NCBI RefSeq assembly: GCF_003334355.1
Contig: NZ_QOWP01000007.1
Length of the DNA: 64,000 nt
Source of the DNA: Escherichia coli
Lineage (GTDB): Bacteria; Pseudomonadota; Gammaproteobacteria; Enterobacterales; Enterobacteriaceae
Reading direction: 5' to 3' (one strand)
This document shows positions 31,099 through 33,121 of the stretch, in pieces (within the stretch, counting starts at the first letter, position 1; each line of letters begins with the position of its first letter). A model generated the notes under the pieces. The model worked only from the letters and a program-made list of their open reading frames with translations, had not been told where the DNA came from and did no database searches. The translations under genes were made by a program, and so were the position numbers.

Positions 31099-33121
31099 GT
31101 TATTCTCTGCATTCAGAAAAAATAAAATCTGGGATTTCAACGGCGGCATCCATCCACCGGAGATGAAAACCCAGTCCAACGGTACACCCCTGCGCCAGGT
31201 ACCCCTGGCGCAGCGTTTTGTTATTCCACTGAAACAGCATATTGGCGCTGAAGGTGAGTTGTGCGTTAGCGTCGGCGATAAAGTATTGCGCGGCCAGCCG
31301 CTTACCCGTGGTCGCGGCAAAATGCTGCCTGTTCACGCGCCCACCTCGGGTACCGTTACGGCTATTGCGCCCCACTCTACGGCTCATCCTTCAGCTTTAG
31401 CTGAATTAAGCGTGATTATTGATGCCGATGGTGAAGACTGCTGGATCCCGCGCGACGGCTGGGCCGATTATCGCACTCGCAGTCGCGAAGAGTTAATCGA
31501 GCGCATACATCAGTTTGGTGTTGCCGGGCTGGGCGGTGCAGGATTCCCGACAGGCGTTAAATTGCAGGGTGGCGGAGATAAGATTGAAACGTTGATTATC
31601 AACGCGGCTGAGTGCGAGCCGTACATTACCGCCGATGACCGTTTGATGCAGGATTGCGCGGCTCAGGTCGTAGAGGGTATTCGCATTCTTGCGCATATTC
31701 TGCAGCCACGCGAAATTCTTATCGGCATTGAAGATAACAAACCGCAGGCGATTTCCATGCTGCGCGCGGTGCTGGCGGACTCTAACGATATTTCTCTGCG
31801 GGTGATTCCAACCAAATATCCTTCTGGCGGTGCTAAACAATTAACCTACATTCTGACCGGGAAGCAGGTTCCACATGGCGGGCGTTCATCCGATATCGGC
31901 GTATTAATGCAAAACGTCGGCACTGCTTATGCAGTGAAACGTGCCGTTATTGATGGCGAGCCGATTACCGAGCGTGTTGTAACCCTGACTGGCGAAGCAA
32001 TCGCTCGCCCGGGCAACGTCTGGGCACGGCTGGGGACGCCAGTGCGTCATTTATTGAATGATGCCGGATTCTGCCCCTCTGCCGATCAAATGGTGATTAT
32101 GGGTGGCCCGCTAATGGGCTTTACCTTGCCATGGCTGGATGTCCCGGTCGTAAAGATTACCAACTGTCTGTTGGCTCCCTCTGCCAATGAACTTGGCGAA
32201 CCACAGGAAGAACAAAGCTGCATCCGGTGTAGCGCCTGTGCTGACTCCTGCCCTGCGGATCTTTTGCCGCAACAGTTGTACTGGTTCAGCAAAGGTCAGC
32301 AACACGATAAAGCTACCACGCATAACATTGCTGATTGCATTGAATGTGGGGCTTGCGCGTGGGTTTGCCCGAGCAATATTCCCCTGGTGCAATATTTCCG
32401 TCAGGAAAAAGCTGAAATTGCGGCTATTCGTCAGGAAGAAAAGCGCGCCGCAGAAGCCAAAGCGCGTTTCGAAGCGCGCCAGGCTCGTCTGGAGCGCGAA
32501 AAAGCGGCTCGCCTTGAACGACATAAGAGCGCAGCCGTTCAACCTGCAGCCAAAGATAAAGATGCGATTGCTGCCGCTCTGGCGCGGGTGAAAGAGAAAC
32601 AGGCCCAGGCTACACAGCCTATTGTGATTAAAGCGGGCGAACGCCCGGATAACAGTGCAATTATTGCAGCACGGGAAGCCCGTAAAGCGCAAGCCAGAGC
32701 GAAACAGGCAGAACTGCAGCAAACTAACGACGCAGCAACCGTTGCTGATCCACGTAAAACTGCCGTTGAAGCAGCTATCGCCCGCGCCAAAGCGCGCAAG
32801 CTGGAACAGCAACAGGCTAATGCGGAACCAGAACAACAGGTCGATCCGCGCAAAGCCGCCGTCGAAGCCGCTATTGCCCGTGCCAAAGCGCGCAAGCTGG
32901 AACAGCAACAGGCTAATGCGGAACCAGAAGAACAGGTTGATCCGCGCAAAGCCGCCGTCGAAGCCGCTATTGCCCGTGCCAAAGCGCGCAAGCTGGAACA
33001 GCAACAGACTAACGCAGAACCAGAAGAACAGGTTGATCCGCGCAAAGCGGCAGTTGCCGCGGCTATTGCCCGCGCTCAGGCCAAAAAAGCCGCCCAGCAG
33101 AAGGTTGTAAACGAGGACTAA
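31091..33121 (+). CDS. rsxC: Rsx complex subunit C, with C-terminal tandem-repeat region
   Basis: ORF track 676 aa; 4Fe-4S motifs [12 protein letters not shown] and [12 protein letters not shown]; C-terminal Ala/Lys/Gln-rich 32-aa repeats. Confidence 0.94.
32745..33070 (+). repeat. in-frame 96-bp tandem repeat (about 3.3 copies) encoding [32 protein letters not shown]
   Basis: Near-identical 96-nt units beginning gatccgcgcaaagccgccgtcgaagccgctattgcccg at ~32843, 32939 and 33035, with a diverged copy starting ~32747. Confidence 0.9.

Follow-up and report, generated by a model that had tools for sequence, protein, structure and literature searches.

The MLVA locus ms11, a tandem repeat with a unit of 96 bp, belongs to a Shigella/Escherichia coli panel that PMC8215070 attributes to Gorge et al. 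(2008, J Clin Microbiol 46:1026), and its primers are given in that paper (PMC8215070, Tables 1 and 2). A Simpson diversity of 0.68 was reported for it among 80 isolates (PMC8215070). In that typing work ms11 serves as an anonymous size marker, and the peptide that it encodes is not discussed. A tandem repeat has also been described in RsxC of Erwinia amylovora, where a 40-aa unit occurs in 0 to 5 copies depending on the strain and was proposed as a typing marker (PMC10587187). In Azotobacter vinelandii, the C-terminal helix of RnfC touches RnfB and RnfH, and its function was stated to be not understood (PMC12174285).

We analysed a repeat array in a 64-kb window of E. coli DNA ("the window" being the whole stretch of 64,000 nucleotides). 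Tandem Repeats Finder reported a single array at 32746-33072 (period 96, 3.4 copies, 91% matches, score 521, no indels), the only one with a score of at least 80 in the entire window. Divided in the codon phase of rsxC, this array consisted of three 32-codon units, a diverged 28-codon terminal unit, and the stop codon at 33119-33121, and it corresponded to residues 553-676 of the protein, in its C-terminal tail. A first-pass annotation, made from the DNA letters, had proposed an in-frame 96-bp repeat of three units plus a diverged copy; both the repeat search and the codon-phase split bore this out, and the 32-residue segment given there was the exact translation of unit 2.

The ms11 primer sequences, GAAACAGGCCCAGGCTACAC and CTGGCGCTGGTTATGGGTAT, each had one exact match in the window, with the forward site at 32596..32615 (+) and the reverse site at 33150..33169 (−), inside rsxD. 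The computed amplicon was 574 bp in the window and 766 bp in K-12. Because these primers bracket the array and the unit is 96 bp, the copy-number polymorphism is an established E. coli/Shigella genotyping marker. The window array is VNTR/MLVA locus ms11, for which multiple alleles have been reported, with no difference at the DNA level. The phenomenon was therefore already known. The polymorphism matters practically as a routine typing marker.

The array lies in a coding sequence at 31091..33121 (+) that yields 676 aa, the length previously given for this ORF. Its assignment as rsxC (rnfC) within rsxABCDGE was supported by the ORF list, by protein profiles, and by the K-12 and EcPNK006 annotation at the homologous position. 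NCBIfam NF003454 matched aa 12-570 at 864 bits (cut-off 345), and TIGR01945 rnfC reached 596 bits (cut-off 246). Pfam placed RnfC_N (PF13375) at residues 14-115, the NuoF-like FMN/NADH domain Complex1_51K (PF01512) at 139-283, SLBB (PF10531) at 296-344, and the 2x[4Fe-4S] ferredoxin domain Fer4_7 at 376-430. ORFs at 29939-30520 and 30520-31098 precede the gene and an ORF at 33122-34180 follows it, and the rsx ORFs were collinear with the annotated rsxA, rsxB, rsxC, rsxD, rsxG, rsxE, and nth of K-12 and EcPNK006. The protein is RsxC/RnfC, subunit C of an Rnf-type ion-translocating oxidoreductase and the NADH-side peripheral subunit of the Rsx/Rnf complex.

The tail extends beyond what these profiles and structures cover. 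No Pfam domain was assigned over the RsxC tail, and the NF003454 profile ends at residue 570, just inside the first unit. The solved RnfC chains 8ahx_C, 7zc6_C, and 9eri_C matched RsxC with E-values of 1e-121 to 1e-83, and the PDB matches extended only to query residue 498 (8ahx_C: query 15-498). RnfC of A. vinelandii (PDB 8AHX) likewise continues past the ferredoxin domain and aligns with E. coli RsxC up to this residue, but it ends at 496 aa and carries no repeat array; the E. coli array therefore has no counterpart in that structure. When the tail alone was searched against PDB sequences, only chance-level matches were obtained (Vang-like protein 2, E = 0.025; RNA polymerase omega, E = 0.07).

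An AlphaFold model of RsxC was built from a 13-sequence alignment and was poor (mean pLDDT 46), and it was used for its secondary-structure pattern alone. At this low overall confidence, helices were predicted at residues 430-481 (pLDDT up to 86), 489-506, and 522-546, followed by one helix of about 22 residues per repeat core, interrupted by non-helical stretches with pLDDT below 50 at the Pro-containing linkers 544-555, 575-588, 607-621, and 639-651. A coiled or helical linker had been suggested in the first-pass annotation, and in this low-confidence model the helix was broken between successive cores. The first helix (32378..32533, +) marks the start of the tail past the ferredoxin domain and aligns with the end of 8ahx_C. 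The second coincides with a degenerate "copy 0" of the repeat motif (aa 489-506; 32555..32608, +), in which D489, D491-I493, and A495-V500 were invariant across 13 enterobacterial orthologues and which has equivalents in distant RnfC tails. The third falls within a conserved "PDNS" basic helix (aa 519-546; 32645..32728, +), where P519, D520, N521, S522, and I525-A537 were invariant across the 13 enterobacterial orthologues. The alternation of helix and linker is inferred mainly from the sequence pattern. We also considered the core as a classic amphipathic membrane helix and rejected this, as a hand-drawn helical wheel placed basic residues all round and the larger hydrophobics were only Val and Ile.

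The four units of the array differ in their relationships. Unit 1 (u01; 32747..32842, +) is identical to unit 1 of K-12; it is older, with mostly synonymous divergence (relative to unit 2, it has 8 synonymous and 2 non-synonymous changes). Unit 2 (u02; 32843..32938, +) matches K-12 unit 2 (u05) except for the final base. Unit 3 (u03; 32939..33034, +) is, according to the unit map, a haplotype marker not found in K-12. The terminal diverged unit (u04; 33035..33121, +), delimited by the codon-phase split, comprises 28 codons (33035-33118) and the stop, and it forms the conserved C-terminal end of the protein in E. coli, E. fergusonii, Salmonella, Citrobacter, Cronobacter, and Klebsiella.

Three long ORFs overlapping this region were judged to be spurious: one of 371 aa at 32111..33226 (−), based on the ORF list and codon composition, and two more from the ORF list, of 168 aa at 32539..33045 (−) and of 151 aa at 32655..33110 (+). 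No stop occurred in the antisense frame that pairs codon for codon with rsxC, either in the array or in the 105 non-repeat codons preceding it (229 codons of tail in all), and shuffling the codon order 500 times never closed this frame. T content was 12% in the tail versus 24.5% in the catalytic part, and the tail contained no TTA, CTA, or TCA codons. The long antisense ORFs thus arise because of the Ala/Lys/Arg/Gln/Glu codon composition of the tail and not, as the first-pass annotation had it, from the identity between units. The repeat merely extends a stretch that is already stop-free.

The encoded peptide was less variable than its DNA. The 38 distinct 96-nt units encoded only 17 peptides, and pN/pS, at 0.09 for the unit as a whole, fell to 0.05 in the core (codons 1-18) and rose to 0.17 in the linker (codons 19-32). 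The 18-residue core was common to the arrays of E. coli, E. fergusonii, Salmonella, Citrobacter, Cronobacter, and Klebsiella, and its first 16 residues were present in E. amylovora. The linker differed by genus in both sequence and length, giving units of 27 to 40 aa. Cores from different genera were 100% identical in amino acids and about 83% identical in DNA, and interior units within one genome shared 90-100% DNA identity. This pattern indicates that the arrays were homogenised or expanded separately in each lineage, with strong purifying selection acting on the core. The Erwinia repeat lies in the same gene at the same position (start aa 553) and begins with the same 16 residues as the E. 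coli unit, but its unit is 40 aa versus 32 aa and its linker is Ala/Pro-rich (AAQAAPAAADKAAPVQQPAAEQ). Expansion or homogenisation of the arrays took place independently in each genus.

When the tail by itself was searched against 1.84 billion representatives, only 130 matches were obtained, and 24 of the 25 longest ones examined contained the RnfC catalytic core. In the full-length matches, the alignment started near residue 446-452. Those that could be named came from Vibrio vulnificus, Pseudoalteromonas, Rheinheimera, Paraferrimonas, Celerinatantimonas, and Erwinia, and the spacing from core to core ranged from 27 to about 64 residues. The charge pattern was highly regular across 24 tails: all 146 cores were positive (mean +4.6), and 98% of 122 linkers were negative (mean −3.9). 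The E. coli unit has a core of +4 and a linker of −4. One further match, P0231, was set aside as an unrelated low-complexity repeat protein without the RnfC core.

Copy number in the population was determined with a flank-only query (600 bp on each side of the array), so that array length could be read from the genomic span. Of the 5,425 complete E. coli genomes, 59 were sampled systematically, and among these the 5.4-copy state of K-12 was the mode (34 genomes, one with 6 extra bp). There were 12 genomes with 4.4 copies (three with 3 extra bp), six with 6.4 copies (O157:H7, O55:H7, and O145), five with 7.4 copies plus 6 bp (a clade at 97.6% identity), and two with 2.4 copies; none of the 59 had 3.4 copies. 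The spans recovered with the flank query included 1431, 1623, 1719, 1815, and 1917 bp. The window's own array, used as a spanning query, was covered in one place by 89 genomes; the exact 3.4-copy span was present in 49 of the best 60 of these and hence in between 49 and 78 of all of them. The 3.4-copy state is therefore real but rare, at about 1% of complete genomes.

The copy-number series was borne out by annotated RsxC lengths of 644, 676, 708, 709, 740, 742, 772, and 806 aa, and E. coli proteins of 835 and 937 aa were also present in the protein database. In E. coli, anything from 2 to 11 full units is tolerated, and in E. amylovora the absence of full units is tolerated as well. The unit count across E. 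coli genomes, proposed earlier as a check, thus revealed that copy number does vary, from 2.4 to 7.4 in the sample, and the expected gain and loss of whole units was seen in alleles that differed by multiples of 96 bp, at times with an additional 3 bp. The 99-bp units found among some B2-type arrays carry an extra CAA (QQQQ), a trinucleotide slip nested within the larger repeat.

Unit maps were made by cutting the window array and 17 fetched arrays into DNA units. All 18 genomic arrays were in frame and ended in the common terminal unit and stop. Phase-variable contingency loci are similar in that repeat slippage produces heritable, reversible length variation. In those loci, however, repeat changes switch expression, whereas rsxC units are 96 or 99 bp, the frame is kept, and only the length of the tail changes. 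Because unit length is divisible by three and the frame was kept in all 18 arrays, expression is not switched, and the array does not qualify as a phase-variable contingency locus.

Several arrays carried traces of unit loss. The laboratory strain OV2 has u01 u07 u08 u04, which is the K-12 array (u01 u05 u06 u07 u08 u04) without u05-u06, a clean two-unit deletion, and AVS0753 equals AZ153 minus three contiguous units (u23-u25). At least six different 3.4-copy arrays were found across lineages (the window type and those of O104 2011C-3493, GPEC389, SMS-3-5, APEC O18, O145:H28, and OV2), and the 3.4-copy number therefore arose repeatedly.

The window array reads u01 u02 u03 u04, and the three-unit state could in principle be an artefact, in which a strain with 4.4 or more copies had near-identical units merged by the assembler. 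The nearest relative, strain 510016, has 4.4 copies (u01 u05 u02 u10 u04), and its array is separated from that of the window by one unit and one SNP; a single base distinguishes u05 from u02, and merging them in an array of this type would give almost exactly the window array. The window's genome is itself absent from the complete-genome set, where its best match is 99.9%. Discordance between assemblies, anticipated in the first-pass annotation, does occur at this locus: O104:H4 2011C-3493 has 3.4 copies, one unit fewer than C227-11, versus a 4.4-copy allele that is 100% identical in seven O104:H4/55989 relatives (C227-11, HUSEC2011, FDAARGOS_348, FDAARGOS_349, 2009EL-2050, 2009EL-2071, and 55989). 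Unit u13 of 2011C-3493 is a chimera at the junction, with the 5' part of u11 (to nt 39) and the 3' part of u12 (from nt 54). This resembles a deletion scar, and the singleton state of 2011C-3493 may reflect either a recent deletion or an assembly collapse. As assemblies of one clone can disagree at the rsxC array, differences in RsxC length should not be over-interpreted. For the window, however, collapse is improbable, as the array u01 u02 u03 u04 recurs unchanged in the independent complete genomes of EcPNK006 (USA, urine) and TUM14664 (Japan), 3.4 copies occur in at least 49 complete genomes from several lineages, and ordinary paired reads span a 327-bp array. A direct origin from a K-12-type 5.4-copy array through the loss of two units, implicit in the first-pass annotation, is more improbable still. 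It has arithmetic on its side: K-12 MG1655 rsxC (b1629) is 2223 bp, encodes 740 aa, the length given in the first-pass annotation, and has 5.4 copies, so that 676 aa falls short of it by exactly two units, or 192 bp and 64 aa. The first and terminal units of the window are also identical to those of K-12, and its flanks are nearly so (2 differences in 4,671 bp upstream, 0 in 2,946 bp downstream). Against this origin, u03 carries three substitutions (ACTAACGCAGAA) found in none of the K-12 units, the K-12-specific units u06, u07, and u08 are absent from the window array, and the genuine two-unit deletion of K-12, in OV2, looks different. The array instead fits a u02/u03 haplotype family that includes 510016, LD22-1, O104:H4, and GPEC389, and the arrays of LD22-1, both O104:H4 genomes, EcPNK006, TUM14664, and GPEC389 likewise have u03 as their last full unit. 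The two-unit gap to K-12 is thus arithmetically true but, judging from the unit maps, does not reflect how this allele arose. We consider it very probable that the window carries a rare natural 3.4-copy variant of the u03 haplotype family, one unit below a 4.4-copy relative and not derived from K-12.

A different question is whether copy number is adaptive, with selection tuning the valency or length of the RsxC tail by lineage, the window's low count included. Copy number is lineage-structured, as in the 6.4-copy serotypes and the 7.4-copy clade, and the strong purification of the core motif and its conservation across orders imply that the tail is not junk. However, lineage structure is expected from descent alone, a single species tolerates RsxC from 644 to 937 aa, equal copy numbers recur in unrelated lineages, and clone-mates differ. 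In E. amylovora, strains range from 0 to 5 repeats, and no phenotype was reported (PMC10587187). Lineage-specific tuning is therefore unlikely, though less so than assembly collapse. The existence of E. amylovora strains with zero full repeats (PMC10587187) argues that the array itself may be dispensable.

The preferred reading is that the array is the ms11 VNTR in the 3' part of rsxC, which loses and gains whole units and encodes a conserved helix motif whose copy number is only loosely constrained; we assign this a probability of about 0.88. Units of 96 bp that are more than 90% identical would misalign in replication or recombination, and whole units would then be lost or gained with the reading frame always kept. 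The mechanism inferred from the unit sequences is replication misalignment or unequal exchange between near-identical units. In E. coli, RecA-independent slippage was reportedly found by the Lovett laboratory to act efficiently on tandem repeats of about 100 bp. The catalytic core of RsxC ends at about aa 445, and the array past it would encode short helices, basic and rich in alanine, that alternate with acidic linkers containing proline. The helix core is under strong purifying selection and is conserved in several gammaproteobacterial orders, with free drift of the linker and of copy number. This suggests a flexible, multivalent cytoplasmic tail in which the helix motif may be the functional element and copy number is loosely constrained.

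The tail motif of RnfC/RsxC is the only lead of wider interest from this locus. Literature searches on the RsxC/RnfC tail and its repeats returned no account of the motif besides the Erwinia typing paper (PMC10587187). We tentatively propose that the repeat might provide multivalent display of a conserved module, an Asp-Pro-capped basic alanine-rich helix plus an acidic linker, that docks a partner or polyanion, with copy number setting the valency; the chances of this are clearly below even. Possible docking partners at the cytoplasmic face of Rnf/Rsx include an acidic electron carrier, RnfB/RnfH, the anionic membrane, and nucleic acid. The amino acids of the core peptide do not vary among the enterobacterial genera that were compared, and the core can be recognised in Vibrio, Pseudoalteromonas, Rheinheimera, and others. 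As this conserved core lies outside every solved RnfC structure, it poses a concrete question about an uncharacterised part of a well-studied redox complex.

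The rsxC array of the laboratory strain E. coli OV2 contains only unit variants that are also found in K-12, namely u01, u07, u08 and the terminal u04. Exactly two K-12 units, the second and the third, are absent from it. The OV2 protein is 676 aa long, as in the window, but this length was reached by a different route; the window array reads u01 u02 u03 u04.

A difference of one whole unit was also seen within the 2011 outbreak clone, in which the array of O104:H4 2011C-3493 is one unit shorter than that of C227-11. The shorter array carries a chimeric junction unit, and the longer O104:H4 allele is shared exactly by seven related genomes. 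The shorter array reflects one of two things: a unit was truly deleted, or the repeat collapsed during assembly.

Not all length differences were multiples of 96 bp. In three B2-type E. coli arrays (L008, L009 and L010), some units are 99 bp long owing to an extra CAA codon, which gives QQQQ in place of QQQ. This codon accounts both for the flank-to-flank spans that are off by +3 and +6 bp, as measured with a query made up of the 600 bp flanking the array on each side, and for the E. coli RsxC proteins of 709, 742 and 806 aa. In ETEC1739 (NZ_CP122758.1), the span was 1718 bp, one base less than the 1719 bp corresponding to 5.4 copies. The missing base could reflect a 1-bp indel that would shift the reading frame in or near the array; alternatively, it could be an edge effect of the alignment.

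Duplications were also observed elsewhere in the protein. An 835-aa E. coli RsxC (P0002) has, besides a tail of 7.4 copies, a tandem duplication of 29 residues within its FMN/NADH-binding domain. Misassembly or damage to the allele may explain it. In a 790-aa RnfC from Salmonella Paratyphi (P0025), the duplication is in another register, with a segment that includes a 24-residue stretch present twice. It links the basic helix preceding the array with the first unit, which shows that the degenerate upstream copy and the array have recombined.

Upstream of the array, the first 4Fe-4S motif of RsxC is C377-x2-C380-x2-C383-x3-C387-P, and residue 386 falls within it. Codon 386 (window position 32246) is TCC (Ser) in the window and GCC (Ala) in K-12, EcPNK006, TUM14664 and GPEC389; Ala occupies this position in all 12 of the other enterobacterial orthologues aligned. 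At the gene boundaries, rsxB overlaps rsxC by 8 nt (31091-31098), and rsxD starts directly after the rsxC stop codon (TAAATG, 33119-33124), an arrangement typical of translationally coupled operon genes.

In more distant lineages, members of a single 90%-identity cluster from Erwinia sp. were 773, 782, 825 and 1013 aa long, and those of a single such cluster from Pseudoalteromonas were 820, 840, 874 and 890 aa long. The length of the RnfC tail is therefore polymorphic within the Erwinia and Pseudoalteromonas lineages, too.
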